DNA of 64,000 nucleotides from an uncultured virus (IMG/VR IMGVR_UViG_3300033066_001573) (taxonomy: Duplodnaviria; Heunggongvirae; Uroviricota; Caudoviricetes), in IMG/VR virus record IMGVR_UViG_3300033066_001573; one strand, written 5' to 3'. The notes under the pieces were generated by a model. It was given only the letters and a program-made list of their open reading frames with translations. It was not told the origin of the DNA and ran no database searches. The translations under genes were made by a program, and so were the position numbers. Positions 3,645 to 43,016 of the stretch are shown here, in pieces. Each line of letters begins with the position of its first letter. The stretch's first letter is position 1.

Positions 3645-4235
3645 TTATTTATTTTTTGATTTACTTAAACTGCCTGAAACACTTACTCTATCGTAATCTA
3701 AAATTATTGTAGCAGTTGTTTTTGGTTGAATAACGTAGTCTAAGAAACAAGTTCCATCTAATATCAAGTTGTTTGGTCTAATTTCAGTCATTTTAGATTG
3801 AAACTGCATAGTTGACATCATTGGTATATACTCTTCAGTAGCAGAATTACCTGTTGCATCTTTACATGTCTTTACAAACATTTGATTTGTTTGAGCTACT
3901 GCATTAACTCCATTAGCTATTACCTTAATTGTTTTAACTTTCTTTGGTTCTCTTGGTAAAGTTTGATTAAAATAAGGTAAGTTTGTATTTGATAAACTCG
4001 AATAATTACCTCCGCCATAAGTATCAAATAATCTTATTTGAACAGGATTTAGTGAACTATTTTTAAATGCAAATTGAGTTAAAGAAGCTTTTCCGAAGTT
4101 GTCTATCATTTCTTCGACAAGATTAGACTTATTCTCTTCTTCTTTATTTTTTCTGTATTTTCTTACTCCAATAAAAACTAATGTAGCTGCTAAAAAAGCC
4201 CCACATACTGCTAATATTTTTTCGTTTTTCGTCAT
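3645..4235 (-). CDS. Membrane-anchored paralog of the putative capsid domain
   Basis: N-terminal TM; KDATGN...MSTMQFQS...LILDGT matches 27842..28573. Confidence 0.65.
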   Translation of the reverse strand: MTKNEKILAVCGAFLAATLVFIGVRKYRKNKEEENKSNLVEEMIDNFGKASLTQFAFKNSSLNPVQIRLFDTYGGGNYSSLSNTNLPYFNQTLPREPKKVKTIKVIANGVNAVAQTNQMFVKTCKDATGNSATEEYIPMMSTMQFQSKMTEIRPNNLILDGTCFLDYVIQPKTTATIILDYDRVSVSGSLSKSKNK

Positions 4236-4239
4236 TTGT

Positions 4240-4959
4240 TTATACTAATTTTAATTTAGTGCTTTTATTAAAAAATGTAAAGTAAACTAATCCCGCTATA
4301 CCTAAGCTAATTAACAATACAGGAGCAATATGATTTTTTTTAATGCCTTGATACGCTTCATTAGCAGCGTTTTCAGAAGCACTTTTTAATTGGTCAATTA
4401 TTTTTGCTATTTTATTTCCACCTTGTCTCACTAAACTACTTGAACTGTTTATTCTACTATTTAAAGCAACTTTAACTAGTTCGTTTCTGTTAGTAGTCCC
4501 TTTCGAAACAGCTTCATTAAAATCTTCTGCAAATTTTTTAAACCAACCTGAGCCATTCCACGTAGCATAAATAAAATTAAATAAAAGTCTATCATCTGAT
4601 TCTATAATTTTTCGTGATTCAGCAGAAAGGTATCTACTAGCTAATTTATTATATTGTTCAAACATAACACTAGCAGCACCTATCTTTAATCTATCTTCAT
4701 ATTCCCCACCTTTATAGTTCCACTTCCATTTTTTTCTTGCTCCTAATAAATCAATAACTTCCCAAAATTTTTTTCCTGAAGGTGATGTATTTAAACTACC
4801 TCCATTTTTTCTATCAATACCAAACATAGTTTCTCCACTACTCGAATATCGATTGTCTTTTACCCTCCCATCTTTTAACATATCGGGATGATAATATCCT
4901 CCCTCAATATTATCTATAATGAAATTAGTTATTTTTATATATCTTGCCTTGTCTAACAA
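4240..4959 (-). CDS. GH108-like muramidase with C-terminal TM anchor (TTG start)
   Basis: IEGGYYHP...SGETMFGID resembles the GH108 EGGY..GGET.YGI motif; C-terminal hydrophobic helix. Confidence 0.6.
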   Translation of the reverse strand: MLDKARYIKITNFIIDNIEGGYYHPDMLKDGRVKDNRYSSSGETMFGIDRKNGGSLNTSPSGKKFWEVIDLLGARKKWKWNYKGGEYEDRLKIGAASVMFEQYNKLASRYLSAESRKIIESDDRLLFNFIYATWNGSGWFKKFAEDFNEAVSKGTTNRNELVKVALNSRINSSSSLVRQGGNKIAKIIDQLKSASENAANEAYQGIKKNHIAPVLLISLGIAGLVYFTFFNKSTKLKLV

Positions 4960-4960
4960 A

Positions 4961-5335
4961 TTAATTTGGATATATTTTTTGTAAAGTATTTAATAACTTT
5001 AAATTATATTCATCATTTCTATTTGAAAGACCTAACTGAGCAGCCTCATATATAAATTTCAATTCATCAAAAGTTAATATTTCTGATATATTTTCTACAT
5101 CTTTAAATAATCTTAAATCATATCCGAAAGGAGTAGGGAACTCTACATATTTAACACCTTCATTGAAGTCGTCAATATTTTTTATTTCCTTGTACTTTTC
5201 ACGCATAGCCCTAACAAACTTCATTTTCTCCTCTTCTTCTTTTCTTACCTTATAATAATTAACGGCAGCTTTAGTAGAAATAGAAAGTCCTAATCCAACA
5301 ATTAAAAAAAATACTATTTTAGTCCCTTTTTTCAT
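4961..5335 (-). CDS. N-anchored membrane protein
   Basis: N-terminal TM, charged remainder. Confidence 0.7.
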   Translation of the reverse strand: MKKGTKIVFFLIVGLGLSISTKAAVNYYKVRKEEEEKMKFVRAMREKYKEIKNIDDFNEGVKYVEFPTPFGYDLRLFKDVENISEILTFDELKFIYEAAQLGLSNRNDEYNLKLLNTLQKIYPN

Positions 5336-5706
5336 TAAATATTTTTTAAATCTTCAAATAATTTTTCAATTTCTTTTCCATTAATTGCCTCTAATCCTTT
5401 TACTGAAATAATAGGAAATTTAATTTCATTCTTTTTTTCAATTGGAATAACCGCCATAAAATAATCGTAAAACGGATTAAAATCATCAATTTTCATACTC
5501 GATAAAGTTTTTTTCCAATTACTTATTAATTCTTTATCGCCTTCAGATAAATCTGTTTTATTTGATAATAATTTTTTATTTACCTCACCTAATATTTTCT
5601 TCTCTTTGTTTTTACGAATAGCGTAAATTGTCCCAAAATATCCTATCGATATTACTGATGGAACTAATACTGCAATTAATATGTTTTTAACCAAAGTCTT
5701 ATTCAC
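5335..5706 (-). CDS. N-anchored membrane protein
   Basis: N-terminal TM followed by RKNKEKK. Confidence 0.7.
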   Translation of the reverse strand: MNKTLVKNILIAVLVPSVISIGYFGTIYAIRKNKEKKILGEVNKKLLSNKTDLSEGDKELISNWKKTLSSMKIDDFNPFYDYFMAVIPIEKKNEIKFPIISVKGLEAINGKEIEKLFEDLKNI

Positions 5707-5712
5707 GACAAA

Positions 5713-29084: not shown

Positions 29085-29816
29085 ATGAGTAATTCAGAAA
29101 CACAAATTTTAAGAAAAAAAGACATTAAGGTATTAGTAATAACACCACATAATGAAGTGAAAAATTATTGCTTTGACGAATGGATGGCTCGTGTAAAAAA
29201 CCTTACATACCATAACTATGACGTGTTAGTTGCAGACAATAGTCCAACAAATAAGAACAAAAAGAAAATTCAAAAAGCAGGATTTGATTGCATTTGGATT
29301 AAACCTAGAAACAAAGCAAATCAAAAGTTTATTGCTGAAAGTCATGAAGCACTAAGGGTTCATGCATTAGCAAAGAAATATGATTTCGTTTTACATTTAG
29401 AGAGTGACGTTTTCCCACCACATGATATTATTGAAAGATTGCTTATTCATAGAAAAACAGTAGTATCAGGCATGTACTTTATTGGACAAGGAGAAGATAG
29501 TCATTTGATGGTACAGAAAACAGAAAAAACAGGTGACACCTTTAGACATACTATAAACATTGAAGAGGGATACGACATGCAATTAGTAGATGGTCAATTA
29601 AAAGAAGTACACGCATGTGGGCTAGGCAACTGCTTAATCCATAAAAGCGTATTAGAAAAAATAAAATTCAGATGGGAAGATGGTGCAAATGCACATCCTG
29701 ATAGTTTCTTTGCAGCAGATTTACAAATGCTTGGCATAAAGCAATACTTAGATACCTCAATATTAAGCGAGCATAAGAATCAGTCTTGGAGCGGTATATC
29801 AAATGTAGTTCGTTAA
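29085..29816 (+). CDS. GT-A fold (GT2-like) glycosyltransferase (start corrected)
   Basis: VLVITP...VADNS...FVLHLESDV...CGLGNCLIHKSVLEKIKFR...PDSFF. Confidence 0.8.
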   Translation: MSNSETQILRKKDIKVLVITPHNEVKNYCFDEWMARVKNLTYHNYDVLVADNSPTNKNKKKIQKAGFDCIWIKPRNKANQKFIAESHEALRVHALAKKYDFVLHLESDVFPPHDIIERLLIHRKTVVSGMYFIGQGEDSHLMVQKTEKTGDTFRHTINIEEGYDMQLVDGQLKEVHACGLGNCLIHKSVLEKIKFRWEDGANAHPDSFFAADLQMLGIKQYLDTSILSEHKNQSWSGISNVVR

Positions 29817-29827
29817 AAAAAAATAAA

Positions 29828-30589
29828 ATGGATGATAAACGTAAAGCGTATCAACGTGAATATAGACTTTTGAATAAAGAAAAATTGAAAGAATACAAAG
29901 TAAAATATACACAGGAAAATAAAGATAAAAAAAGAGAATATGATAGAGTTTACCGAAAAAAAAATAAACGTAAAATAAAAAAATATTGCAAGTTAAATAA
30001 AGACAAAATTAAAAAGAGAAGGGCAGAACATAGCAAGAAAAACGCTAAGGTTTTAGCTGAAAAATCAAGGATATATTACAGTAATAACAAAGAAAAGATT
30101 AAAGAAAGTAGAACAGCGAGTGAAAAACAGATACTATATAGAAAAAATTATTACATTAAAAATAGAGATAAAAAAAACAAAAAAGATAGAGAAAGAAGAG
30201 AGTTAGATTTAGATTTTAGAATAAGGGGAAATCTAAGACATAGAGTTGGAATGGCAATAAAGAACAATAGTAAGTCTGAATCAACATTTGAATTATTGGG
30301 CTGCTCAATTACCGAGTTAAAAAAACATTTAGAATCAAAATTCACAGAAGGAATGACTTGGGACAATTATGGCTTAAAAGGTTGGCATATTGACCATATA
30401 ATACCATGTGATGCTTTTGATTTAAGACACAAAGAGGCTCAAAAAATATGCTTCAATTACTCAAATATGCAACCAATGTGGGGCAAAGATAATAGAAAGA
30501 AACAAGCAAAAATAGATGTTTTGGATTTACAGAAATTAACTACTTATGAAAGACAATTTTTAAAGGAAAAATTTAAAAACAAATTATAA
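29828..30589 (+). CDS. HNH homing-type endonuclease with basic N-terminal repeats
   Basis: GMTWDNYG..WHIDHIIPC..FDL....Q..CFNYSNMQPMW..DN.KK. Confidence 0.85.
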   Translation: MDDKRKAYQREYRLLNKEKLKEYKVKYTQENKDKKREYDRVYRKKNKRKIKKYCKLNKDKIKKRRAEHSKKNAKVLAEKSRIYYSNNKEKIKESRTASEKQILYRKNYYIKNRDKKNKKDRERRELDLDFRIRGNLRHRVGMAIKNNSKSESTFELLGCSITELKKHLESKFTEGMTWDNYGLKGWHIDHIIPCDAFDLRHKEAQKICFNYSNMQPMWGKDNRKKQAKIDVLDLQKLTTYERQFLKEKFKNKL

Positions 30590-30592
30590 ATC

Positions 30593-30808
30593 ATGAAAGA
30601 ACACAATGTAGATGATTGGTATTGTTTTGATTCAGAAGAAAACTACAGCTTTGAAGGTGATGTAAAAAAATATAAAACTGTTATTAGTGCAACTACAAAT
30701 GTTTCATTTTTAAATTTTGGTAAATCATCTATTGAAGAGAAAATATTTTCTTCCTTAAAAAAGAAAGAGAAAATGAAAAGATTAAGAATTTTAATTTGTT
30801 TAAAATAA
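30593..30808 (+). CDS. Hypothetical protein
   Basis: 71 aa ORF within the operon. Confidence 0.55.
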   Translation: MKEHNVDDWYCFDSEENYSFEGDVKKYKTVISATTNVSFLNFGKSSIEEKIFSSLKKKEKMKRLRILICLK

Positions 30809-30824
30809 TTTTAAAATTAAAAAA

Positions 30825-31148
30825 ATGGATTTTGGATTTACCTCTTATGATTACGATGTTTTAGAGCCGATTGAATTATATTCAATTGAACATGTTAAAA
30901 ATGAGCGAAAAATATTTCAAAGCAATTGTAAGAATTGCGGTGCGCCACTAAAAAAAAATGATTGCTGTGATTATTGTAGAAGTGATTTTAGAGTAATTGA
31001 AACTCCTAAATTAAATAATTTTAAAAATGGAGGAATAGTAGAAACTAAGGAAGGTGGATGGAGCGACTTAAATTCTTATCAAAAAGTAGCAGTGATATTA
31101 TTTGTAGCTCTTGCACCAATACAACTTTTTAGATTTCACAAAAAATGA
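30825..31148 (+). CDS. Zn-ribbon protein with FKNGG linker and C-terminal TM
   Basis: CKNCGAPL...CDYC; FKNGG; hydrophobic C-end. Confidence 0.65.
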   Translation: MDFGFTSYDYDVLEPIELYSIEHVKNERKIFQSNCKNCGAPLKKNDCCDYCRSDFRVIETPKLNNFKNGGIVETKEGGWSDLNSYQKVAVILFVALAPIQLFRFHKK

Positions 31149-31540
31149 AAAACGAAAATGAATTAATACCAATTCAATATGTTATTGAGAATATTAATGG
31201 TATTCAAAAGATAACCAATGCTTATTATTTGAAAACAATAGATGGCAAACCTAATGATAAAATCCTAATTGATTTTAAAATACATACTTCTTTAATAAGA
31301 ATAGAAACAGATAATGGAACTTTAGTTGAAGAAACAGTAAAAAAGTTTTTTATAAAGGAAAAAGAAATAAAGTTACCTTCTTATTTTTCAGCTTATAATA
31401 TTCCAATCCATATAAAGGATATTCCTGTCGATGACCTTATTGAAAACACAAATGATTTAATTTTTGAATTAATTGAAAATTCAAAAATAATAGTTACAAT
31501 ATTCCGTAAAGATAGAATTAATTTAAAAAGATTTTTGTGA
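31145..31540 (+). CDS. Hypothetical protein
   Basis: 131 aa; ATGA overlap with the upstream gene. Confidence 0.6.
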   Translation: MKNENELIPIQYVIENINGIQKITNAYYLKTIDGKPNDKILIDFKIHTSLIRIETDNGTLVEETVKKFFIKEKEIKLPSYFSAYNIPIHIKDIPVDDLIENTNDLIFELIENSKIIVTIFRKDRINLKRFL

Positions 31541-31553
31541 TATAATTTGAAAA

Positions 31554-32180
31554 ATGAAAATTGAAATTATCATGCCTTCATTCTTGGGGGCTTACCAAAA
31601 TTCAGCAACAGATAGAGAAAGAAAGTTTGAAAGAGCTGTACAAAGCTTTTTGAATCAATCGTATGATAATAAATCTTTGATTATAGTTTCGGATGGCTGC
31701 GATATAACGAACAGAATAGTAAGGTCTAAATTTAATCATGAATGCATTAAATTAGTTTCTATTGACAAACAACCATTATTCTCAGGAGCAGTTCGTCAAG
31801 AAGGATTAAATGCCGCTGATGGTGATTTTATAACGTATTTGGATGCAGATGATATGTACAAAAATAACAATCACCTAGAAGTAATTGTAAATGGATTTAA
31901 ACAATATGATTGTGATTGGTTATACTTCAATGATTATGTAAAATACTTTCACCTAGACCACTTGCCATTAGCAGAAAGAAATGTTACATTGAATAAAGGA
32001 GAAATAGGAACGTCTAACATTGCTCATAAAAATAAAAAAGATATTAATTGGATTGGCTGTGATAATTATGGACATGACCATACTTTCATAATGAATATGA
32101 AAAATAAATATCCAAACTTTAAAAAGATTTCAGGAACATCTTATGTGGTATGTCATATTCCAAATTCGGTGGATGTTTAA
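31554..32180 (+). CDS. GT2 family glycosyltransferase
   Basis: IEIIMPS...SFLNQSY..LIIVSDGC...GLNAADGDFITYLDADD. Confidence 0.9.
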   Translation: MKIEIIMPSFLGAYQNSATDRERKFERAVQSFLNQSYDNKSLIIVSDGCDITNRIVRSKFNHECIKLVSIDKQPLFSGAVRQEGLNAADGDFITYLDADDMYKNNNHLEVIVNGFKQYDCDWLYFNDYVKYFHLDHLPLAERNVTLNKGEIGTSNIAHKNKKDINWIGCDNYGHDHTFIMNMKNKYPNFKKISGTSYVVCHIPNSVDV

Positions 32181-32201
32181 GGTTAAATCATTAATTAAAA
32201 T

Positions 32202-32238
32202 AAAAAGTCCTATTCAAATTGAGTAGGACTTTATTTTT
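32202..32238. terminator. Bidirectional terminator at the convergent junction
   Basis: AAAGTCCTATTCAA/TTGAGTAGGACTTT stem flanked by A- and T-runs. Confidence 0.8.
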
Positions 32239-32257
32239 AACCAAAAAAAATAATTAT

Positions 32258-32830
32258 TTAAACATTTTTACCATAAAATTTAATATTTAATTCCGTTTCA
32301 GGTTCAACTGTAAGTTTAAAATAAGAGTTACCATCAATTGTAATTCCAAAACCTCTAATTGGAATTATATTTTTATCTTCCTTATCTTCTAATAGAATAG
32401 GTATAATATTATTATTTCCAAAATCATCTCTATAAAATGATTTTGTAATAATTGGAGTATCAAGAGTACTTCCATTTTTATCAATGTTAATATATCTAAT
32501 AATATTATATAATTGATTTTTATTATGAGAATCTAACTCAATAAATTCTAAAGATGTTTTATGTTCTTCATTAACATTTTTTTTAACAAAAGAAATGATG
32601 TCTTCTGAACTTTTTTCAGATATTTTTATCTCAGAATCACTCCCGAAATTACCTGAAAAAATAAAAATATTTAATCCAAATAATATAGCCTGTTTTGCTT
32701 CTTTACTGTCATTAATTATTTTAAAATCATAAATAGCTTTTTTATCTATAGATTTAATAAATTCATTTTGAAGATTATCAATAGCCTCAAAGCTTTCATT
32801 TCCTTCATGTTTTCCATTTACAAATTTCAT
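32258..32830 (-). CDS. Divergent paralog of the putative capsid domain
   Basis: YDFKIIN....KQAILFG....NFGSD...DKNG....PIITKSF...IDGNSY. Confidence 0.7.
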   Translation of the reverse strand: MKFVNGKHEGNESFEAIDNLQNEFIKSIDKKAIYDFKIINDSKEAKQAILFGLNIFIFSGNFGSDSEIKISEKSSEDIISFVKKNVNEEHKTSLEFIELDSHNKNQLYNIIRYINIDKNGSTLDTPIITKSFYRDDFGNNNIIPILLEDKEDKNIIPIRGFGITIDGNSYFKLTVEPETELNIKFYGKNV

Positions 32831-32847
32831 TTATTTAAGATTAAGAA

Positions 32848-33210
32848 TTAATTAAAAAACCCATCAAATCCACTATCAAGGTTTTCTGTGTTTGACAAGT
32901 CGATTCCATCAAATGCCGTTATGGATTGAACTTTATTATTTACTTTATCAATAATAGGAGTGATGTAGCAAATTGTATCAGGTAAAACTCCAATATATTC
33001 TCTTCCGTTGATTGGATTTATTAACTTCCAAAATTCATTTTCTATAATGTTTCCATTAGCAGATTGGAATTTTAAACGTGTAATATCATTTTCAATTAAA
33101 AATGAATCCTTTTTTTTAACAGGTACATTAATAAATGACTTATAAAATCCATTTGCATCAGATAAAAATACCCTCATGCCAAAATCTTTTTTAAACACTA
33201 ATCTTTTCAT
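32848..33210 (-). CDS. Hypothetical protein ending in FDG motifs
   Basis: TAFDG...SGFDGFFN. Confidence 0.65.
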   Translation of the reverse strand: MKRLVFKKDFGMRVFLSDANGFYKSFINVPVKKKDSFLIENDITRLKFQSANGNIIENEFWKLINPINGREYIGVLPDTICYITPIIDKVNNKVQSITAFDGIDLSNTENLDSGFDGFFN

Positions 33211-33214
33211 TTTA

Positions 33215-33703
33215 TTATTTTTTTGGTGGAATAATCTTCATTGAGGCAGCAGCTAAAATTGTACCCGCTAATGAGAATAACAAGGCATAACCAATATATC
33301 CTTTAACACTTGATTTTTTGTAATAAGCAAACCCTAAACCTGCTGCTAAACCAATTGGTGATAATATTTTTGCTCTATTAGAAAATACTTGTAATTTATT
33401 AAAAACATTTTCTAATTCTTTTGGTGGTTCTATTGTTGTTGATGTAGAAGCCTTGCCTTCTTTAAAATCTGAAACCATTTTTCTAGCTGTATCATCAAAT
33501 GGCTCGAAGAATTCAGAAAATTGATTAACGTCTTTTGCAGCATATTCAGCAAAAGTTAATCCTTTTTGCTTTGTAGCATCAGATGTATACCTAAATGCTA
33601 CTTTCCAATTAGGGTCTTTATCATTAGAAATTAATTGACCATCAACAACCATATTTAATGGAGCATAATCTCCTACTTTTTTTATTACTTTAAACTTTGC
33701 CAT
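33215..33703 (-). CDS. Protein with two C-terminal TM helices (start corrected to MAKFKV)
   Basis: The track N-extension only reads through the microsatellite. Confidence 0.75.
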   Translation of the reverse strand: MAKFKVIKKVGDYAPLNMVVDGQLISNDKDPNWKVAFRYTSDATKQKGLTFAEYAAKDVNQFSEFFEPFDDTARKMVSDFKEGKASTSTTIEPPKELENVFNKLQVFSNRAKILSPIGLAAGLGFAYYKKSSVKGYIGYALLFSLAGTILAAASMKIIPPKK

Positions 33704-33723
33704 TTTTTTAAATTTATATTTTT

Positions 33724-33731
33724 CAAAGATA
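33724..33731 (-). promoter_or_regulatory. -7 promoter element adjacent to the microsatellite
   Basis: TATCTTTG on the minus strand. Confidence 0.55.
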
Positions 33732-33744
33732 GCAAAAGATATAC

Positions 33745-33792
33745 TATGTATGTATGTATGTATGTATGTATGTATGTATGTATGTATGTATG
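33745..33792. repeat. (TATG)12 perfect microsatellite
   Basis: 48 bp, counted directly. Confidence 0.97.
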
Positions 33793-33839
33793 AGTAACTT
33801 ACAATTAGTAACACTAAATGTTGCATGTTACTTTATAAT

Positions 33840-34094
33840 CTAATTGAATGTCTTTCTTTTAGAAATAGAATCACTTATTTGTTTTTTAACTTGCTCTATT
33901 TTAAATAAATTATCAGGGTCTTGCTTAACTAAATAATCTTCTATCTGTTCAAGTACCTGAAAATAGCCTTCATTAGCCATAGGAGCTGAATTTGATTTCA
34001 CTAATGATGTTCCATATGCATTCCAATAGAACTGAAGAAGTTCTTCATTAGAAAGGTTTAAATTGATTGGAATTGAATTTTTATTAGAATTCAT
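33840..34094 (-). CDS. Hypothetical protein (start corrected to MNSNK)
   Basis: The track start lies in the terminator hairpin. Confidence 0.6.
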   Translation of the reverse strand: MNSNKNSIPINLNLSNEELLQFYWNAYGTSLVKSNSAPMANEGYFQVLEQIEDYLVKQDPDNLFKIEQVKKQISDSISKRKTFN

Positions 34095-34099
34095 AAAAG

Positions 34100-34128
34100 A
34101 AAAAAGCCACACCGATTAAGATGTGGCT
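34100..34128 (-). terminator. Rho-independent terminator
   Basis: AGCCACA...TGTGGCT stem plus U-run on the minus strand. Confidence 0.65.
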
Positions 34129-34135
34129 ATTGTTT

Positions 34136-34717
34136 TTAGTCCGCTACTACTGACAAAGGAGAAGATGCCTTAACCTCTTCGCTAGGCTTAAACTTGCCTA
34201 ATCTAATTGCGTTTTCAACCTCTTGCTTGATGTACAAGAAGAACTCAACTTTTATTTTAATGTCATCGTTTTCGTTTTTATACGAATTCATTACATCTGA
34301 TAAACGAGGGTTTGTTTTCATTACCTCTTGTGCCTGTGAATAGATTTCATCATATCTACTATCGCAATCAGCTTTAAGCTCTGCAAACTTAGCGTCATAT
34401 TCTTTTCTTCTATCCATCCACATTTCAAAGTATCTTTTCTTTTCAAAAAGACTTGCCTCTGCACTTTTCTTCTCTAGGCTTAATTTACCAATATCATAAG
34501 AATCTAAATGTATTTTCTTTGTTACAGGGAAGCCCAATAATCTGAATGTTTCAGTTGTATAACCTCTTTTGATACGCTCATCAATAGCTTCCATGATTTT
34601 ATCAATTGCTAATAATGATTCTTTGTAAAAAGTAACCCTACTATCTATTTCAGGTTTTTGTTCGAGGATTTTTACTATTTCCTCTCTCTCTTCGGGAGTC
34701 ATGAATTTTTTACTCAT
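34136..34717 (-). CDS. Hypothetical helical protein
   Basis: 193 aa, charged, coiled-coil-like. Confidence 0.7.
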   Translation of the reverse strand: MSKKFMTPEEREEIVKILEQKPEIDSRVTFYKESLLAIDKIMEAIDERIKRGYTTETFRLLGFPVTKKIHLDSYDIGKLSLEKKSAEASLFEKKRYFEMWMDRRKEYDAKFAELKADCDSRYDEIYSQAQEVMKTNPRLSDVMNSYKNENDDIKIKVEFFLYIKQEVENAIRLGKFKPSEEVKASSPLSVVAD

Positions 34718-34796
34718 ATTGCTGTTTTTTTTGCTGTTAATAGATGATAAAAATAGTGAAATTATTTGAATGTCTTTTATTTTATTTTAAAAGTTA

Positions 34797-35642
34797 TTAA
34801 AAAATTGATTTTCCTAGTTCTCCAAATTTAGGATAATTATTACTAAAACCTAATAGATGATACATGACTTTTGTTCTGCCCATAATCGTTGTTTCAATTG
34901 ATTCAATTTTACTCAAGTCAAATTTATGTTGAACATCAACTATTCCTGATTGGAACTGATTAGCCGAAAAGCTATTTATAGGTTCAATTTTATCTAATGA
35001 ATCTTTTGATTTATTTAATACAGGCACTTCAAACTGATTATGATTTTTAGTCCAAATTCTCATTAATTCATAATTAGTTTTATCTTCATTAAAATCATTG
35101 TTAGTTATTTTAATTTTTTCATTTTCATTTATTCCTTTGAATAAATCAATTAAATTAACTTTAACAGACTCTAGTGATGTATTTTCAACTACAACATAAG
35201 AGCCTTGTTCATGTAGTTTATTACCTTTCGATTTACCTTCAAAAAAAGTAACACATACATGTTCCATAAACTTTAATGGAATTCTAAGATTCAAATCTTC
35301 TATTTCTGCTTCAAAAGGAATGTCAATTATACCTGATTGAAATTGATTAACCGAAAAATAAGATGATAAATTCACCTTCTTGTCAAAAAGAAAGAATGGA
35401 CGAGATAAAAAATCAAAAATATCAATATTGAATTGCAATCTCATTAATTCTATAGATTTGAAATCTTCATCTTCTTTTTGACCAACTCCTATTCTTATAG
35501 AACCTGAGTTTTTTACGAAATCTTTAGCGAATGGATTTACATAAACCACATCTCTATTGGCATTATATAAATCGAATTGTATAGGAGATTTACTTTGTTT
35601 GTAATCTCTAATGATGGTTTCTGATGCGAATATATCTTCCAT
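34797..35642 (-). CDS. Tandem double copy of the putative capsid domain
   Basis: YFSVNQFQSGIIDIPF and SFSANQFQSGIVDVQH, each preceded by ELMR. Confidence 0.75.
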   Translation of the reverse strand: MEDIFASETIIRDYKQSKSPIQFDLYNANRDVVYVNPFAKDFVKNSGSIRIGVGQKEDEDFKSIELMRLQFNIDIFDFLSRPFFLFDKKVNLSSYFSVNQFQSGIIDIPFEAEIEDLNLRIPLKFMEHVCVTFFEGKSKGNKLHEQGSYVVVENTSLESVKVNLIDLFKGINENEKIKITNNDFNEDKTNYELMRIWTKNHNQFEVPVLNKSKDSLDKIEPINSFSANQFQSGIVDVQHKFDLSKIESIETTIMGRTKVMYHLLGFSNNYPKFGELGKSIF

Positions 35643-35674
35643 GTTGTTATTATTTTTGCTGTTAATTTGTATTT

Positions 35675-36343
35675 TTATAATTTTGTATTTTTTAGTAAAA
35701 CATCTCCTCCGTAATCTTTAACTACTTCATAATAAGGTAATAATTCTAAAATTTCTGAAATATTTATTTTGTCACTGTAAGAATATCCATCAATATATTC
35801 AGTGTAAAGATATTTTACATGATTGGTAAATGTTTCCATTCCACCTCTTATCATGTCTTTTTCAGCTCCCTGAACATCAGCCCATATAAAATCTATTTTT
35901 TTACCTTTTAAAATACTGTTATTATAATGAGTATCAAGTTTAATGACATTAGTTTTTGATAATTCAAATTTAATATCAGGATATTCTCTAAGAATAATTT
36001 GCGGTTGTTTAATTGATGAACTTCCATGATAGCTAGTTATAAACTTACCATCTTCATATTTTTTTCCGCTGCTCACATGAAAATCACATTCTCCATCTAT
36101 ATTTCCTATTGCATATTCATAAAAATCCAATAATCCATCTTTTATATAATCTCCATTTCTATTATAAAAATCTGTTTTTAGATTTTTATTTGGCTCAAAT
36201 GCATGATAAATAAATTTTCTATTTAATAATTTAAGATGTTCAATCATTATTTTTGTTTGGTCTCCCTCACAAGTTCCAAATTCTAAAACAATTGGATTAT
36301 CTGATTTAGATATTAAATGTTTAAATTTTTCAAAAATTTCCAT
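35675..36343 (-). CDS. FkbM family methyltransferase
   Basis: VLEFGTCEG, HAFEPN, KLD, IDFIWADVQGAE, YLYTEY. Confidence 0.88.
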   Translation of the reverse strand: MEIFEKFKHLISKSDNPIVLEFGTCEGDQTKIMIEHLKLLNRKFIYHAFEPNKNLKTDFYNRNGDYIKDGLLDFYEYAIGNIDGECDFHVSSGKKYEDGKFITSYHGSSSIKQPQIILREYPDIKFELSKTNVIKLDTHYNNSILKGKKIDFIWADVQGAEKDMIRGGMETFTNHVKYLYTEYIDGYSYSDKINISEILELLPYYEVVKDYGGDVLLKNTKL

Positions 36344-36348
36344 TTTTT

Positions 36349-37041
36349 TTATTTTTTATAAAAGTAAGTTGGTGTTGAATTAGGAATAGTTAGTATTTCG
36401 GGATGGTATCCTATTTCATCAAAAAATTCATTACATGCGATTCTAACGCCATCTAAAGCCCAATCATCAATTACTACAATACCTCCTTCTGAAATAAAAG
36501 GATATAGCTTTCTTAGTGTATAGATTGTCGGGTCGTAAATATCCATGTCTAATCTTAATATTGCTATTTTACCAATATTACTTGCTACTTCATCAGTAAT
36601 AGTATTTTGAACCCAACCTTGAATTAAATTTATTTTTAATCCATCATAAAGTCCAAAACTTTTTAAGTTTTTAATTACTTGGTCTTTAGGATGACAAGTT
36701 ATTCCACTTGATTTTAATAGTTCGGATTCAGGAACATTAACATCATGTGTTATAGCTCCTATTCCTGCTTGAACAGTATCTTTTTTGCCCGCTAATTGTA
36801 TCCCTTCAAAACTATCAAACCCATAAAAATCTCTATTTAATCCTGATGGACTTGAAACAACTCCAAGTATCATGGAAGCAAAGTTTCCACCTGCCGCTAT
36901 ACCACATTCAATGATAGCACCTTCAATATTATTATCTACAACATATTTTCCTATATCAAAACTATGTTGTTTAGTTTCTGTTGATGAATATACTATTTGA
37001 CCTATTTGGTTAAGCGTATTGTTTATTATTTGTTCGTTCAT
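36349..37041 (-). CDS. TylF/NovP-like sugar O-methyltransferase
   Basis: IEGAIIECGIAAGG, GFDSFEG, IAILRLDMDIY, GGIVVIDDW. Confidence 0.9.
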   Translation of the reverse strand: MNEQIINNTLNQIGQIVYSSTETKQHSFDIGKYVVDNNIEGAIIECGIAAGGNFASMILGVVSSPSGLNRDFYGFDSFEGIQLAGKKDTVQAGIGAITHDVNVPESELLKSSGITCHPKDQVIKNLKSFGLYDGLKINLIQGWVQNTITDEVASNIGKIAILRLDMDIYDPTIYTLRKLYPFISEGGIVVIDDWALDGVRIACNEFFDEIGYHPEILTIPNSTPTYFYKK

Positions 37042-37066
37042 ATTTTTTTTATTTGTTTGTTTAAAA

Positions 37067-37741
37067 TTAAATTCCTCTTGCTAAAAAAATTGTTGATTCA
37101 TTAACAGGTATTCCATCAAATTCATACTGCATAAAAGTAGGATTTATTCTTTTAATATCCATACTATGTGCAACAAAAGAAGCAACTGATTGGTCATGTC
37201 GATGACCTAAGCATCTAGGGTCATTAGAGCATGAATTATTTTGATTATTCCAAGCTCCTTTGAATGTCATTTCTTGTTGTGCATAATTAAACCATCTATT
37301 AAAGAATTCACTTGATTTTTCATTTGTAAAATCTATTCCTGTAAATCCCGCTGAATGTAATTGAATTAGCATTGATTCATCTCTAGTTATTCCAAAAGTG
37401 CTTAAAGCTGAGTCAGTACAATACTGACCTAAACTATACCCACAATATTCTAAAAGAGTTCCATGCTCCTTAATAAAGTTAAAACAAGGCATTACGTTTT
37501 TTATAGGGTATAAAGATGCATCGCAATATAATACAACATCATATCCTCTTTTTTTCGCTTCATTTATTGCAAAAACTTTAAATTGATACGGAACTTCTTG
37601 TTGAGACTTACTTCCAACTTGGGAATAATCATCGAATAATAAAATATCTCCCTGATAATTATTTTCTAATAATTTTTTATATAATCGAGATTGCCCTGTT
37701 TTAAAAGAACCATTTGAAAAATTAACTATACAATGTTTCAT
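37067..37741 (-). CDS. Putative GT-A glycosyltransferase
   Basis: PYQFKVFAI.EA...GYDVVLYCDAS...HRHDQSVAS. Confidence 0.65.
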   Translation of the reverse strand: MKHCIVNFSNGSFKTGQSRLYKKLLENNYQGDILLFDDYSQVGSKSQQEVPYQFKVFAINEAKKRGYDVVLYCDASLYPIKNVMPCFNFIKEHGTLLEYCGYSLGQYCTDSALSTFGITRDESMLIQLHSAGFTGIDFTNEKSSEFFNRWFNYAQQEMTFKGAWNNQNNSCSNDPRCLGHRHDQSVASFVAHSMDIKRINPTFMQYEFDGIPVNESTIFLARGI

Positions 37742-38319
37742 TGTTTTTTCTTTTTAAAAATTACATCAGAATAATTAAATTTAACCTTTTTATTTTTTGA
37801 ATTAAATTTATGTACAAATCCGCTTTCACTTATTTCATAGCTTGGTAAAGGTAAGTATTTTTCATAAACACTTGATTCAAAAAAAGAATAATTTGCATTA
37901 TAAATAACTAACAATCCACCTTCATTTAACTTTGAATCTAAAATATTTAAAGCGTTATTAAAACTTTCAAATGGGTATATTAAAGAAGAGTCATCAGTTA
38001 ACTCTGTATCCTCCCACTTACAAAGAACGCTCATTGCAAATATAACATCATATTTTTTCTCATCACTTACAAATTCGTTATAGTGCATTACTTTATCAGT
38101 ACCAAACTCATTTCTACAGATGTTTATACAATTATCACTTATATCTACTCCATAAATATCAGAGCTTTTAAAGTAAATATCTTTAAAAGTTCTCATCTCT
38201 TCTCCTGTTGAGCATCCAAAAGATAATACTGATTTTGGATTTATTAAAATAGAACTAACCTCCTTAAATATATTTGGATACCGATTGTATAGAGTAGCAT
38301 TATTTTTTTGATGAACCAT
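37738..38319 (-). CDS. Class I SAM-dependent methyltransferase
   Basis: VLSFGCSTGEE, YGVDIS, YDVIFAMSVL, LNEGGLLVI. Confidence 0.85.
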   Translation of the reverse strand: MVHQKNNATLYNRYPNIFKEVSSILINPKSVLSFGCSTGEEMRTFKDIYFKSSDIYGVDISDNCINICRNEFGTDKVMHYNEFVSDEKKYDVIFAMSVLCKWEDTELTDDSSLIYPFESFNNALNILDSKLNEGGLLVIYNANYSFFESSVYEKYLPLPSYEISESGFVHKFNSKNKKVKFNYSDVIFKKKKQ

Positions 38320-38924
38320 TACTTTGCTGCAATTAAATTTTCTGCATTTAGCATAATTTGTTTGAATCCAAAATTAGATAGTCTTTCCATCATTTTAGCA
38401 TTATGATTATCGTGTTCAATACAAATCATTTTTAGTCTATTAAGAAAGTTATCAGGAAGTAAATTGAATAATTCCAAGTTAGTTCCTTCTGTATCCAATG
38501 TTAGAAAATCTATGTCAGAACCATTTTCTTCGATAAATCTATTCATACTTATAGCCTCCACAATAATCTTATTGTATTTAACCCCTGCTCCACGCTCCCA
38601 TTTATCCTTATGAGATACATCCGTAGTCCCAATAGCATCTCCTCCAATTGTATCATGAAACTCAATAGTACCATCTTGAGGTGTTATTGCAGCTTGAACT
38701 AATTTTATTCTAGGCTCATTAGAATATTCATTTACGAATTGCTTCATACAAATAGGTGAAGGCTCTACAATAACTCCACTAGCTCCTAATTCATATAAAG
38801 CTCTTGTATTTGAAAAAGTGAAAGGATGAAATCCACCAATCTCAATATATTTAATTCCTTCTCCATTATTATTGAAATAATTTAGAATGTAACTCTGCTC
38901 ATCGTTTTGACTATATTTTTCCAT
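38319..38924 (-). CDS. FkbM family methyltransferase
   Basis: YSQNDE, YIEIGG..P.TFSNT, VIVEPS, IDFLTLDTEG, MICIEH. Confidence 0.88.
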   Translation of the reverse strand: MEKYSQNDEQSYILNYFNNNGEGIKYIEIGGFHPFTFSNTRALYELGASGVIVEPSPICMKQFVNEYSNEPRIKLVQAAITPQDGTIEFHDTIGGDAIGTTDVSHKDKWERGAGVKYNKIIVEAISMNRFIEENGSDIDFLTLDTEGTNLELFNLLPDNFLNRLKMICIEHDNHNAKMMERLSNFGFKQIMLNAENLIAAK

Positions 38925-38938
38925 TTTTTATTTTATTT

Positions 38939-39304
38939 TTAAATTCTAGTTTTAAAATGTTCCTTTATTTTTTCTATTGCATCATAAGCAATTTTTGCAG
39001 CTTTTTCATTTTTACAATTTATCGCTACATATGCTAAGTTTCCTATTGAAGTTGTATTTGCAGATTGCAATTCAGCTATACTAAAATCCGTGTTTAAAAC
39101 TCCTTCAACAAACCATTCTTCATTAACATTACATTTAGTTGGAAAGTCAACATAATTTGCTTGTTCTTCGATTGGTATTGATAATATTTTAGGGAACATT
39201 ATCTCAAGATGTTCTATCGATGAACGTAGTCCAAATTTATCAAATCCCCAAGCGGTTCTTTTAAATATTGAAGCTGTATTGTAAATTATTTCTCTTAAAA
39301 ACAT
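38939..39304 (-). CDS. Hypothetical protein
   Basis: 121 aa ORF in the operon. Confidence 0.6.
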   Translation of the reverse strand: MFLREIIYNTASIFKRTAWGFDKFGLRSSIEHLEIMFPKILSIPIEEQANYVDFPTKCNVNEEWFVEGVLNTDFSIAELQSANTTSIGNLAYVAINCKNEKAAKIAYDAIEKIKEHFKTRI

Positions 39305-39310
39305 AATTAA

Positions 39311-39886
39311 TTATTTGTTTGAAACGTATCTGTAAAAGTACGTTGTTTTTTCTATTCTGCCCTCAGTTTTTAACAATCCTGACCTACATAATTGCATTGC
39401 CCAATCAGTATCCTCACCATGATTTATTTCAGGAAAAACAAATTGCTTACCAATAGAACTTCTAATTATATTTAAGTGATTAGGTGGTCTATAATGAACA
39501 TTGTCTTTAGTAAAGTATTCAGTATGTTTTAATTCGTGTATAAACGTTTGACTACTTCCTCCGTCAACTGTTAGTTCTCCTATTAAATTAATGCAGTCAG
39601 GATTTTGTGAATTTAAAATATCAACTGCTTCACGTAAGTAATCAGCTATCTTATCATCATCATCAATAAAACAAAACCATTTACCCCTGCATGCTTGAAG
39701 AAGGATATTTCTTTTCCATCCAATACTATGCTCTCCTCTTTTATCTTTTGAAACAAGAACTTCAATATCAATGCCTTCTTGTAATCCAAACTGCATCATT
39801 TGTCTTGCAATGTTGTATTTAAGGTCATCAAAGAAATGTTCTCTTCCTTCGATAGTACATATTAATATAGATAAAGTCGGCTGCAT
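39311..39886 (-). CDS. GT2 family glycosyltransferase
   Basis: LSILICT, IGWKRN.LL, GKWFCFIDDDD, GEDTDW. Confidence 0.88.
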   Translation of the reverse strand: MQPTLSILICTIEGREHFFDDLKYNIARQMMQFGLQEGIDIEVLVSKDKRGEHSIGWKRNILLQACRGKWFCFIDDDDKIADYLREAVDILNSQNPDCINLIGELTVDGGSSQTFIHELKHTEYFTKDNVHYRPPNHLNIIRSSIGKQFVFPEINHGEDTDWAMQLCRSGLLKTEGRIEKTTYFYRYVSNK

Positions 39887-39916
39887 TATTTTTTAGAAAC
39901 TTTTTTAGTTGACTTT

Positions 39917-40924
39917 TTAACTGATTTTTTTAGTAGTTAATTTTTCATTGTTCACTTTTTTTGAAATTATATCCAAAGTTTCTTTATTTTCATTTTTCGA
40001 AGTTTGTTTTTTACCAATTTTTCTTTTATATACTAAAACATTTGCTTTGTTACTTAGTTTTTTTATTTGCTTGAAAACATCATTATTTTTCATCTCTAAT
40101 TCAAACGCATCTAAATTATCAATAAAATTCTCAGCCTCTTTTATTAATGCATTAATATAGTCTTCTAATTCAACATATAAGTTAACCATATTTCTATACA
40201 AATCACTTGGAATATCATTTAAACCAATAAGAAGAGTATGAATTTTTTCATTAAAAAACATCTTAGAACTTGAACTACAATAACTATTAATTGCATTTTC
40301 CTCTTCATCTGCTTTATAAGAATTTCTTAATCGATTAGCTTCATTTATTTTATTGATTAAAATTTCAGAAAATGGATGCTTTATATCTTCAATCATTTTT
40401 ATCAAACCACTTTCTCCAAAATAAGCTTCAGCACCTCGTTTGTTTTCATAAAAAGGAAAAAATGTAAATACAACTTCTGTTTTAGGAGGAAGGGTGAAAT
40501 TTAAAGCTACTGAACCATCTAAATAAAGTTTATAATTAACATCAGCAATGTATTTTTGACTTTGTTTTGGGTCAATATAACTATTTATTAATAAAGGCAT
40601 AGTCAATGATTGACCATTAATATCTTGACAATGAATAGATAGAACTAAGTCTTTTAAATTATCTTTTGATTTTTTAGCATCAAACTTATCTTTTGAATTT
40701 TTTGTTTGAAGATGAAGACGCATCTTATCTATTCCATACGAAGAATGTAATAAAGTTTTTTGTACATGTGGGTATGTAATATTTTGAAAACAACTTTGAA
40801 TATCTTTATTTTCAAAATCATTAAATTCTGAACCAAATAAACTTATTTGTTTTGGCTGAATAGTTTCATTTTTAGCGATTAATTGCAATGGACATGAGCT
40901 GTGAAAGTACCTTTTTTTTCTCAT
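39917..40924 (-). CDS. Capsid-domain paralog fused to a helical C-terminal region
   Basis: PLQLIAKN....ISLFG...DINGQSLTMPLLINSY...LDGS...FTFFP. Confidence 0.7.
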   Translation of the reverse strand: MRKKRYFHSSCPLQLIAKNETIQPKQISLFGSEFNDFENKDIQSCFQNITYPHVQKTLLHSSYGIDKMRLHLQTKNSKDKFDAKKSKDNLKDLVLSIHCQDINGQSLTMPLLINSYIDPKQSQKYIADVNYKLYLDGSVALNFTLPPKTEVVFTFFPFYENKRGAEAYFGESGLIKMIEDIKHPFSEILINKINEANRLRNSYKADEEENAINSYCSSSSKMFFNEKIHTLLIGLNDIPSDLYRNMVNLYVELEDYINALIKEAENFIDNLDAFELEMKNNDVFKQIKKLSNKANVLVYKRKIGKKQTSKNENKETLDIISKKVNNEKLTTKKIS

Positions 40925-40945
40925 TTTATTTTTTTTTGCTGTTAA

Positions 40946-41728
40946 CTATTTTCTGAAAGGACATGAATTATACAATAAATCAAGGTCTTCAGTAATTATT
41001 GTTTTTTCAATATCCATATTATTTGCTATATGCTTTATATCTTCGATATTAAACTCATTTCTTAAATCTAAGAACGAAGGCTCTTTAATATTTGTTGTAG
41101 AAAAATAATCATGGTACTTAAAATCATCTCCACCTATTTTATCTGTAAATTTTACCCACTGACAAGGAACTCCATAAGCATGAGATGTGATTATACCATG
41201 TAAACTACTTGAGATAGTTTTATCACATTCATTTATTTGGTCAACAACAGACTCAATATCATCACAAACATTAATCATTTTTATTCCTAATTTTTGTAAG
41301 TCCCTATCAGAAATTCTTAGGACATCAAAAACTCTTTTTAAATCAACATAGTGAGGTATTATTCCGAGCTTATATTTTTTTTCTTTATTAGGAGAATAAA
41401 ATCTAGGCATGAGCAGTGCAGGGTCTCCATAAACTTCATCAAATTCAATACCTTGCTTCTTACAAAGTTCTCCTGTTAACCTTCCTCTTACTGCATATAT
41501 TTTAATTTTATCAGGTATAATATCGGTTGAAAAAGCCACTCCGCATCCCCAAACATAAGCATTAGGAACATCATTATTAAGTATAGAGCCTGTTATCATA
41601 TACTTTGGATTAGGGTCGTTAACATCAAGTAAAACAGGTTGATGTCCGCTTATTTTAGCAGTAATATAATGACTCATTGCATCACCAAAGTTATTCGAAA
41701 GATAATAATATACAGGAATATAACTCAT
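40946..41728 (-). CDS. Polysaccharide pyruvyl transferase family protein
   Basis: NNFGD, GSIL, AVRGRLT, GDPALL, LGIIPHY, ISSSLHGII.SHAYGVP. Confidence 0.88.
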   Translation of the reverse strand: MSYIPVYYYLSNNFGDAMSHYITAKISGHQPVLLDVNDPNPKYMITGSILNNDVPNAYVWGCGVAFSTDIIPDKIKIYAVRGRLTGELCKKQGIEFDEVYGDPALLMPRFYSPNKEKKYKLGIIPHYVDLKRVFDVLRISDRDLQKLGIKMINVCDDIESVVDQINECDKTISSSLHGIITSHAYGVPCQWVKFTDKIGGDDFKYHDYFSTTNIKEPSFLDLRNEFNIEDIKHIANNMDIEKTIITEDLDLLYNSCPFRK

Positions 41729-41730
41729 TT

Positions 41731-42477
41731 TTAAAGACTTATTTCTGATTTTTTAATCATTGAAGTTAACAATATTTTATCAATAGTACCATCGTATTTC
41801 ATAAAATCTAATTTAACACCATAGCCTTTTTCATAATCAATAGTAACATAATTCATGGAAACTAATCTAGTTAAATGAGACCAAACTTCTTCTTGATTAA
41901 CATCTTTAATCATTTTAAAAATTTCTTCGGCTTTAACGAAATCCTTACCTTGTTGCAGTTGACATGAAATAATAGAAAATAAAACTTTTATAAAACTCTT
42001 ATTTGTATGCTTATCAAAATCATCTAATAAAAAACCATGTAACTCTATAGTAAATTCTGTTTTCTTATCCACAAATAACTTAAACATAGTATTACCATCT
42101 ACTTTTATGTTTACGTAAATATCAATGTAATATAATTTAGTACCTTTCTCTTTTATTATATCACAACTATATGTTGTCATTTTTCTTGTCTCATCAACAA
42201 TTCCATTAGTTGTATTGTGTTGAATTGTTCTATGTAATTGTTTTTTGTTTTTGCTTTTTATTCTTATTAAATTAACTTGAGATGGAACATGAGCAGATTG
42301 CTGTAATACTTGAAGATAGCTTGCATTTACTAATGTAGGCACTACCTTAATATTAACATCAGAACCAAAGTTTACAGAAAGTAAGTTACTATTACTTCCA
42401 AACAATGTACATTCTTTAACTGAATCAGTTGGGTTACTAACAGTTAATGAATAAAGTTTATTGCCTAAATTTTTCAT
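41731..42477 (-). CDS. Capsid-domain paralog with possible C-terminal winged-helix
   Basis: TLFGSNSNLLSVNFGSD...SYLQVLQQSA...KVDGNT; C-term AEEIF....NQEEVWSHLTRLVSMNYV. Confidence 0.7.
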   Translation of the reverse strand: MKNLGNKLYSLTVSNPTDSVKECTLFGSNSNLLSVNFGSDVNIKVVPTLVNASYLQVLQQSAHVPSQVNLIRIKSKNKKQLHRTIQHNTTNGIVDETRKMTTYSCDIIKEKGTKLYYIDIYVNIKVDGNTMFKLFVDKKTEFTIELHGFLLDDFDKHTNKSFIKVLFSIISCQLQQGKDFVKAEEIFKMIKDVNQEEVWSHLTRLVSMNYVTIDYEKGYGVKLDFMKYDGTIDKILLTSMIKKSEISL

Positions 42478-42488
42478 TTTTTTTAATT

Positions 42489-43016
42489 TTAAAGTTTTTT
42501 TATTTTTGGATAAAATCTAATTTCTAATTCAGTATTTGGCAATACTTTAATCGTAAAATTAACAGAATGATTAACAATTATTTTATAAGGTATTTCAAGC
42601 CAGCCATTCTCATCTATATCTTTTAAATAACTTTCAATAATTAAAGGGATAGTACAAGATTGACCACTAGCATCTTTACTTTCAATATTAAGAACATTTT
42701 TTAATTGTTCAATATCTGAAGCTTTTATGCATATTAACTCTGTTTCAAAAGGTTCAAATGCGGATTGACAAAGCAGCTCCGTATAGCTAACATTATTACA
42801 TATCGTAGTTACATCTATACCATCATCTGAACCATAGTTTTTTCTGTGTATGTTTTTACTAAATCCAAAAATAGATGAATACAAAGCTTTATCTGTTTTA
42901 TTTGATATGGTAACCCCATAAGGAGATGGTCTTCTTTTCAAATTAACATCCTTAAAATAAGCTTCTGCACTTTCATCATATGAAAACCCTTCTTTATTTT
43001 CTGTATTATCTTCCAT
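42489..43016 (-). CDS. Close paralog of the putative capsid protein
   Basis: RRPSPY, NYGS, NVSY.ELL.QS..PFET.LI, DASGQSCTIPLI. Confidence 0.8.
   Translation of the reverse strand: MEDNTENKEGFSYDESAEAYFKDVNLKRRPSPYGVTISNKTDKALYSSIFGFSKNIHRKNYGSDDGIDVTTICNNVSYTELLCQSAFEPFETELICIKASDIEQLKNVLNIESKDASGQSCTIPLIIESYLKDIDENGWLEIPYKIIVNHSVNFTIKVLPNTELEIRFYPKIKKL

Follow-up and report, generated by a model that had tools for sequence, protein, structure and literature searches.

Nine putative capsid-domain paralogs, six of them dispensable, in a large, apparently tailless, Bacteroidota-type phage

The DNA studied here is a 64-kb window of a 73.5-kb linear virus record (IMG/VR IMGVR_UViG_3300033066_001573, hereafter G000), which we compared with relatives named G001–G006. 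A first-pass annotation had proposed that eight genes of this window encode paralogs sharing a putative capsid domain. All eight open reading frames (ORFs) exist and lie on the minus strand: 27842..28573 (243 amino acids, aa), 18162..18779 (205 aa), 3645..4235 (196 aa), 42489..43016 (175 aa), 41731..42477 (248 aa), 39917..40924 (335 aa), 34797..35642 (281 aa), and 32258..32830 (190 aa); genes are referred to below by their first coordinate. They constitute one family, each being recovered among the 140 ORFs of the contig by a leave-one-out profile (E 2.8e-41 to 4.5e-7), with the best ORF outside the eight at E 0.013. The family is not limited to eight, however, since a ninth member, 31145..31540 on the plus strand (131 aa, shortened and on a long branch), had been missed and was detected with the 34797-family profile (E 1.2e-11). 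The shared domain comprises ~145 residues, and the identity between copies is 13–40%. The six sequence motifs listed for the family are present but form a mosaic, each occurring in 4–6 of the nine domains and all six in 27842 only. Two further proposals hold: 34797 contains the domain twice, according to both profiles and an AlphaFold2 (AF2) model, and a single member is membrane-anchored, 3645 having an N-terminal hydrophobic helix and the other members none.

The members are divided between two gene blocks. Three of them (27842, 18162, and 3645) belong to the structural block, of which 27842 is the first gene, and the remaining six, henceforth the extras, are located in a glycan-modification block (29055..43813; assigned with Pfam and PHROGs) that includes glycosyltransferases (29055, 31554, 39311, and 43028), methyltransferases (35675, 36349, 37738, and 38319), and a pyruvyltransferase (40946). 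The proposed placement of three members among structural genes and five among glycan-modifying genes is therefore correct, but the latter block is in fact a conserved operon-like run headed by a putative packaging ATPase, 45196..46032 on the minus strand. The arrangement of the ATPase, the glycan genes, and the capsid gene, in this order, is conserved in relatives. The FtsK/HerA-type P-loop ATPase 45196 is likely to be the genome-packaging motor; its Walker A, Walker B, and RH..Q motifs are conserved in four genomes, its match to HerA in Pfam is weak and below the cut-off in all four, and there is a weak terminase-family P-loop match (E 2.3e-6), so that the packaging role remains putative.

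Database comparisons of the members yielded no meaningful match in Pfam (a chance-level one for 3645 only), one weak match in PHROGs, and none in NCBIfam or among PDB sequences. No match was found in 50,697 phages and 72,556 plasmids, and a search of 400 other Bacteroidota genomes did not detect the domain. Clustering at 50% gave 1,265 representatives. The number of copies per genome is 9 in G000, 11 in G001, 6 in G002 (with 3 more on a second contig), 4 in G003, and 3 in each of the partial G004 and G005; G006 has two distant copies. Tandem arrays of two to four domains occur in 32 of the 150 top representatives, and N-terminal membrane anchors in 36 of the 144 top representatives, 33 of which have more Lys and Arg residues after the anchor. 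In the phylogenetic tree, 27842-type proteins form a clade with short branches (100/97), 18162 and 3645 belong with their orthologs to another clade (99/96), and the extras are found on long branches, for whose order the careful tree gives no firm support. A position of 42489, 41731, and 32258 as sisters of the capsid clade, obtained with a quick tree (93), was dropped after this result. A search of openly accessible papers found no description of this virus group. We conclude that the family is real, larger than first noted, and present in an undescribed lineage. Four copies in relatives (G006:C1 29624-30253 and 37550-38149; G001:C16 235761-236363 and 105728-106186) share a basic-hydrophobic tail, R-[IY]-[LR]-x-[LI], a possible degradation or targeting signal; three of these four are located far from structural genes.

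The product of 27842 consists of an N-terminal helix with an acidic arm, the domain (residues 58–202), and a C-terminal arm. In the AF2 model, the domain is an 8-9-strand β-sandwich, with a predicted local distance difference test score (pLDDT) above 90 over most of residues 60–200, and the arms are flexible. The best VIA rows include a PR772 chain of 124 residues (Z 6.5; root-mean-square deviation, rmsd, 2.8; 94 residues aligned), the phiCjT23 and FLiP capsid halves (Z 6.0), and PBCV-1 capsid halves. Foldseek found nothing below E 0.001 in the PDB and only generic jelly rolls in a viral library, the Atlas matches were all 0.76, and in a repeat fold comparison the comovirus capsid, AlgX, PRD1 P3, and nucleoplasmin were tied. 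The capsid proteins of Halopanivirales and SPV1 are absent from the best 50 VIA rows, which excludes nothing. The motif YFS.NQFQS spans a helix between strands F and G of the 27842 model, by our own strand assignment; helices of this kind in phiCjT23 are described as wedging between adjacent barrels (PMC9719478).

Homologs of 27842 number 335, and its orthologs in five other genomes are 46–59% identical. The ratio of nonsynonymous to synonymous substitution rates (dN/dS) for the capsid gene is 0.11, and the N-arm motif is present in 80 of the 97 capsid homologs and missing from the extras. Genes were also ranked by a codon index, the fraction of Phe, Tyr, Asn, and Ile codons that end in C; in six genomes, the 27842 ortholog is placed 3/63, 13/381, 13/148, 3/100, 1/109, and 1/103. 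Among the 148 scanned ORFs (of 161) of the closed genome G003:C48, no alternative capsid candidate was detected. Because of this conservation and codon use, the position at the head of the structural block, and the lack of another capsid candidate, we regard 27842 as likely to be the major capsid protein, with a single jelly roll. The capsid-domain reading of the family is supported by the predicted jelly-roll fold of both modelled members, 27842 and 34797, and by the conservation and codon use of 27842, which match those expected of a major capsid protein, although the predicted single-domain fold matches known proteins only generically. For the members as a whole, of which these two of nine were modelled, no sequence match to a non-virion enzyme or carbohydrate-binding family was obtained, including DUF2961 and known carbohydrate-binding modules (CBMs) in Pfam, NCBIfam, and PDB sequences.

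The two other members of the structural block, 18162 and 3645, are core minor paralogs and near-universal, likely serving as vertex and membrane-tether subunits, respectively. Their dN/dS values against G006 are 0.124 (18162) and 0.108 (3645). Of the 28 loci with at least 8 kb downstream of the capsid gene, 20 have a family member there, mostly directly after a gene for an HExxH protein. In the window, this gene (18783..19652, minus strand) adjoins 18162 directly upstream; its conserved product, a candidate maturation metalloprotease with the motif assigned by sequence reading, shows 48–55% identity in five other genomes. A long insert near residues 31–58 was observed in 15 of the 20 18162-type relatives examined, and in 2 of the 4 tested it is weakly β-propeller-like, with scores below the cut-off. 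For 18162, we infer a penton-like role. The 3645-type genes encode an N-terminal anchor in G001–G006. The hydrophobic helix of 3645 is preceded by 1 and followed by 6 Lys or Arg residues, and, since more basic residues follow the anchor than precede it, the domain is predicted to be on the cytoplasmic side, where the shell would assemble. The minor-capsomer and membrane-tether roles suggested in the first-pass annotation thus fit 18162 and 3645; for the copies among glycan genes, their absence from relatives rules out a role as essential capsomers. A short motif (SGFDG / SSADG / SNAEG) recurs in the N-arm of 27842 and in membrane proteins of the structural block (window 19860-28573), with 12 occurrences versus 1.2 expected there and 1 elsewhere, the pattern having been picked after viewing the sequence; possible functions are a site for HExxH protein 18783 and a motif for docking to the capsid.

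The distribution of the extras was evaluated in 85 loci, 24 of which have at least 8 kb upstream of the capsid gene, with 13 reaching the ATPase. Extras were found in 5 of these 24 loci, and none of the 13 compact loci spanning to the ATPase contains an extra detectable with four profiles. The 13 compact relatives represent one subclade (capsid proteins 70–98% identical), and 10 kb suffices to span compact loci only; they hence bear on dispensability, not on frequency. By gene content, the six extras are dispensable; a role as essential capsomers was ruled out because there are relatives without them. The 34797 tandem type was likewise rejected as an essential packaging-vertex capsomer: it is located near the ATPase in G000–G003 but missing from the 13 compact relatives. 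A comparison of close strains covered 27800-38900, with 39917, 41731, and 42489 lying outside; the runs that carry an RNA label probably represent DNA. In contigs of runs X5 and X12, the sequences on either side of 31145 are joined and the gene is cleanly absent, and 32258 is skipped or replaced in one X5 contig and present in run X12. Strains that differ in extras are 97–98% alike at the capsid gene.

The extras rank 39–61 of 63 by codon index (42489 has rank 59), and two extras of G001 have dN/dS of 0.31 and 0.29, versus 0.11 for the capsid gene. Judged from their sequences, the extras are intact, fast-evolving, and weakly codon-tuned; they are not debris, because full-length orthologs exist and the dN/dS of the two G001 extras is ~0.3. 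Full-length relatives of 39917 are 70, 41, and 39% identical, and its long C-terminal tail has no Pfam match; those of 41731 and 42489 are 32–46% identical. Among the family members, 42489 is the nearest to 27842 (40%) and lacks the C-terminal arm; most of its nearest relatives are membrane-anchored at the N-terminus, whereas 42489 itself is not. A C-terminal winged helix-turn-helix is predicted to follow the jelly-roll domain of 41731, the Atlas structure matches of this tail being to DtxR/MarR/Rio2-N-type domains with template modelling (TM) scores of 0.61–0.67 by query, under the tool's naming bar. The same architecture occurs in G001 95548, P0220, and P0212. No near relatives of ATPase 45196 and 34797 were found in viral contigs. 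The ATPase-glycan block also contains 34136-34717, a conserved helical-looking gene of no known family found in nearly all related loci beside two divergent glycosyltransferases, as well as two mobile inserts, an ORF cleanly absent in three related strains (window 29786-30589) and a TnpB gene between ATPase 45196 and the first glycosyltransferase (window 43779-44993). A third mobile insert, with an IscB-like gene (window 7338-8681), has a different position in G006.

The tandem member 34797 is the most divergent of the family. Its AF2 model consists of two packed sandwiches (pLDDT 83; predicted TM score 0.81), for which Foldseek reported one match below E 0.001, PM2 P2 (E 6e-4). VIA ranks 1–7 are occupied exclusively by capsid proteins of the double-jelly-roll type, with alignments that extend over both domains, namely those of phiCjT23 (Z 8.7, rmsd 4.6, 191 aligned), STIV (7.5), PM2 (7.2), EhV (7.1), faustovirus (7.1), PBCV-1 (7.0), and PRD1 (7.0); as a caveat, the predictor may favour double-barrel packing. 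Full-length orthologs of 34797 are 96–38% identical, and the invariant residues of its family are the shared structural ones, with no new catalytic set. At the sequence level, the single and tandem forms are related, because capsid-type proteins with a single domain are retrieved by a profile built from five tandem proteins (E 2.5e-12 in 5.8 billion). A profile-profile match between tandem and single forms (99.6%) was not used, the alignment having contained a capsid-like single-domain row. Duplication of a viral single domain can, as this case shows within the limits of the model, yield a predicted double-barrel form; the origin of the known double jelly rolls, argued in PMC8812541 and PMC10848233 to lie in cells and not in a fusion within viruses, is not thereby explained.

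The genome carrying the family is probably larger than the record. G006, a close relative of 170 kb, overlaps the first 21.5 kb of the window and continues for ~140 kb beyond it, so that the genome size of the lineage, inferred from these two strains, is probably above 200 kb; further relatives measure 97, 102, 109, 149, and 375 kb. The 109-kb contig G003:C48 is closed, its ends overlapping by 127 nt. Its 148 scanned ORFs (E 1e-5) include no major-capsid, portal, terminase, tube, or sheath family, and the virion-type matches are limited to fibre-type proteins, an endolysin, and one small 'virion structural' protein; no head-tail family was detected either among 109 ORFs of G001 (240-1000 aa, E 1e-8) or 15 ORFs of G006. 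Caudoviricetes are defined by the HK97 capsid, portal, and terminase, none of which was found in the scanned ORFs of these three relatives. A hydrophobic helix is predicted for 24 of the 76 window ORFs, and these many predicted membrane proteins suggest an inner membrane, the virus being probably membrane-lined. The window also encodes lytic transglycosylase, TnpB, IscB-like, and ArdA genes (Pfam). A Shine-Dalgarno-like word is present in only 1 of the 56 start regions, and A occupies positions -3, -6, and -12 in 39, 36, and 45 of them, respectively, which we take to be the Bacteroidota pattern. Three of the five genome bins containing a relative are labelled Bacteroidota, which is no proof of the host. 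Taken together, the virus is apparently a large, Bacteroidota-type, tailless phage. G003 carries Rep3, ParB, and an integrase, so that a resident state is plausible.

Several other features of these genomes were observed. The closed G003:C48 contains a CAP12/Pycsar TIR-domain effector gene (74471-75367). The 375-kb G001:C16, from a Bacteroidota bin, is viral-looking throughout, with an even GC content of 31% and no cellular core among the 109 scanned ORFs; it encodes RNA ligases, RtcB, a tRNA nucleotidyltransferase, NAD salvage genes, and homing endonucleases, and the head-tail core was not found. In G006:C1 (77800-115700), more than 12 consecutive ORFs are similar and DNA-methyltransferase-like, as judged by their N-terminal sequences. 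Giant polyvalent proteins (window 9221-16636, 50470-54840, and 60460-64000; G000 64573-73284) are punctuated by [FYM]xxGG, with 29 matches versus 0.8 in shuffles; this pattern, again picked after viewing the sequence, marks candidate cut sites.

Among known systems, PBCV-1, a virus with an inner membrane whose single large genome likewise encodes multiple divergent capsid paralogs that differ in glycosylation, is the best functional model for the extras. Its shell is described as containing five major-capsid variants with 25.6–42.8% identity and varied glycosylation (PMC9617893). However, PBCV-1 is a eukaryotic virus with double-jelly-roll proteins, and its variants are demonstrated in the shell, whereas here the domain is single, the host bacterial, and the extras, known from genes alone, vary between strains. 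The capsid fold shared by PBCV-1-type paralogs is reflected here in profile homology for all nine members and in the fold of the two modelled. Helvetiavirae/Singelaviria (Halopanivirales), exemplified by P23-77, SH1, and HCIV-1, have a packaging ATPase and an inner membrane. They resemble the present virus in having single-jelly-roll shell proteins but are defined by having two major capsid proteins, each a single jelly roll (PMC10848233, PMC8812541), that form hetero-capsomers; here one gene only, in six genomes, has major-protein conservation and codon use (abundance was not measured), the 27842 fold matches are generic (Z 5–6.5), and relatives reach 109–375 kb. Bamfordvirae with minimal double-jelly-roll capsid proteins (phiCjT23, FLiP, PM2, STIV, and PRD1) share the two-barrel form predicted for 34797 and have an FtsK/HerA-type ATPase, to which 45196 would correspond, and 27842 matches their single halves and the small PR772 chain; phiCjT23 and FLiP infect Flavobacterium, and the phiCjT23 capsid protein is a double jelly roll (PMC9719478). 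In contrast, the likely major protein here is single-domain and the double form dispensable, being absent in the 13 compact relatives, and prokaryotic double-jelly-roll viruses are given as <20 kbp in PMC8812541. A counterpart of the single-jelly-roll penton of Bamfordvirae may be 18162, a conserved paralog with variable inserts. Both Helvetiavirae/Singelaviria and Bamfordvirae have upright barrels arranged as an icosahedral lattice above an inner membrane. Portogloboviridae (SPV1) also have one single-jelly-roll major capsid protein, but SPV1 is archaeal and lacks a packaging ATPase (PMC8812541), whereas here the putative packaging ATPase 45196 is conserved next to the glycan block and the genome is far larger. 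Cellular DUF2961 double-jelly-roll glycoside hydrolases have a similar two-barrel fold (Z 6.7 with 34797) and a carbohydrate context; unlike them, the 34797 halves are related to a viral single domain, with no sequence match to the hydrolases, and the family was not found in the 400 other Bacteroidota genomes. The virus appears to work like a membrane-lined jelly-roll virus, yet it does not fit the definitions of Bamfordvirae, Helvetiavirae/Singelaviria, Portogloboviridae, or Caudoviricetes.

The reading that we favour, at a probability of about 0.45, is that the shell of a large tailless virus is built from this domain, with 27842 as the major capsid protein, 18162 and 3645 as vertex and tether subunits, and the extras as low-copy shell variants. 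Capsomers of 27842 would form on a membrane that derives from the host and in which the many small membrane proteins are embedded, 3645 would pin the lattice to this membrane, and 18162 would close the vertices, displaying in most relatives an inserted propeller-like domain, while ATPase 45196 would pump in the DNA. The extras would be made late and at a low level along with the packaging and glycosylation genes, and would dock via the shared domain surface, altering the surface locally, the display of glycans, or the attached modules, in the manner of the major-capsid variants of PBCV-1; different extras may have different functions. Several observations weigh against this scheme. The particle and the roles in its shell are deduced for a virus represented here by genes alone. 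The single-domain Z of ~6 for 27842 is in the tool's common-arrangement range, where AlgX (6.3), the comovirus capsid, and nucleoplasmin tie; the first codon-index rank in this contig belongs to 34136, not to 27842, with small counts; and the 34797 match to phiCjT23 has the above-mentioned rmsd of 4.6, with cellular DUF2961-type proteins close behind at Z 6.7. Lattice docking of the extras is uncertain, as of the 71 conserved capsid-protein residues they retain 15–36, and the QFQS motif is lost in 42489, 41731, 39917, and 32258; PBCV-1 variants keep 41–58% identity in the base body, above most extras here (PMC9617893). The winged-helix fusion of 41731 and the copies distant from structural genes (29624 and 37550 in G006, 235761 in G001) suit non-structural roles better.

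With the same core, the extras might instead be conflict genes, i.e., capsid mimics that enter and stall the shell assembly of related viruses co-infecting the cell, or that absorb host capsid sensors. Such an explanation, possible but on balance unlikely, agrees with the patchiness of the extras even among strains nearly identical at the capsid gene, with their faster evolution and higher dS than those of the capsid gene, with the loss of arms and of one motif alongside retention of the other half, with the frequency of anchors (36/144, most followed by more Lys and Arg) and tandem arrays (32/150) among the representatives, and with copies located among accessory genes, together with the plausible resident state of G003. 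Yet the six copies in the ATPase-headed block are probably made beside the virus's own capsid protein, and no bacterial-virus precedent was found in the literature. Alternatively, the extras may have been repurposed as adaptors bringing glycan enzymes to the capsid protein, as carbohydrate-binding or enzyme-like modules, or as regulators, with 41731 coupling capsid level to DNA binding. Their position among glycosyl-, methyl-, and pyruvyl-transferases, the occurrence of AlgX, CBMs, and DUF2961-type enzymes among the jelly-roll matches, and the winged-helix tail point in this direction, but 13 relatives retain the same glycan block without any extra, the invariant residues of the 34797 family are structural rather than catalytic, and no CBM or enzyme-family sequence match exists, which leaves repurposing rather improbable.

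An explanation that we consider slightly less probable still concerns the core itself: 27842 might be a transient scaffold or coat of a particle that is enveloped or resembles a vesicle; alternatively, the element might be plasmid-like with the domain doing another job. The generic single-domain fold scores, the many membrane proteins, the candidate protease, the repeated short motifs in structural genes, and the plasmid-type replication genes of G003 would all be accommodated. They are countered by the tandem form, which resembles double-jelly-roll capsid proteins first, by the penton-like and tethered paralogs, the ATPase, and the cell-wall hydrolases, and by the lack of matches in 72,556 plasmids and of another capsid candidate in the closed genome. 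Finally, it is very improbable that the extras are surplus duplicates drifting to loss in an expanding genome, as their long branches and low codon index, the shortened 31145, and the failure of a word-indexed search to find a relative of 41731 might suggest; frames are open in all listed cluster members, 34797 and 39917 have full-length orthologs down to 38–41% identity, dN/dS is ~0.3, and the 34797 fold is confident.

A broader proposal, which we offer only tentatively and consider doubtful, is that the virus represents an undescribed jumbo (109–375 kb), tailless, membrane-lined lineage whose shell is made of one single jelly roll and which repeatedly spawns tandem double-jelly-roll-like derivatives with sequence-recognisable halves. 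If 34797-type trimeric pseudo-hexamers fit the 27842 lattice, this would be a living case of the single-to-double step, which reviews treat as refuted for viruses; the optional copies, if the proposal is true, would constitute a tunable repertoire of shell variants or capsid decoys unprecedented in phages. The tailless jelly-roll phages known to date are small, and shells with multiple glycosylated variants have been described for giant algal viruses; here, the two features would be combined in a widespread bacterial-virus group of up to 375 kb, for which the domain is usable as a marker gene. With single, membrane-anchored, insert-ready, and tandem forms in one genome, both the single-to-double jelly-roll question and the question of whether the extras are variants or poisons become testable with purified proteins.

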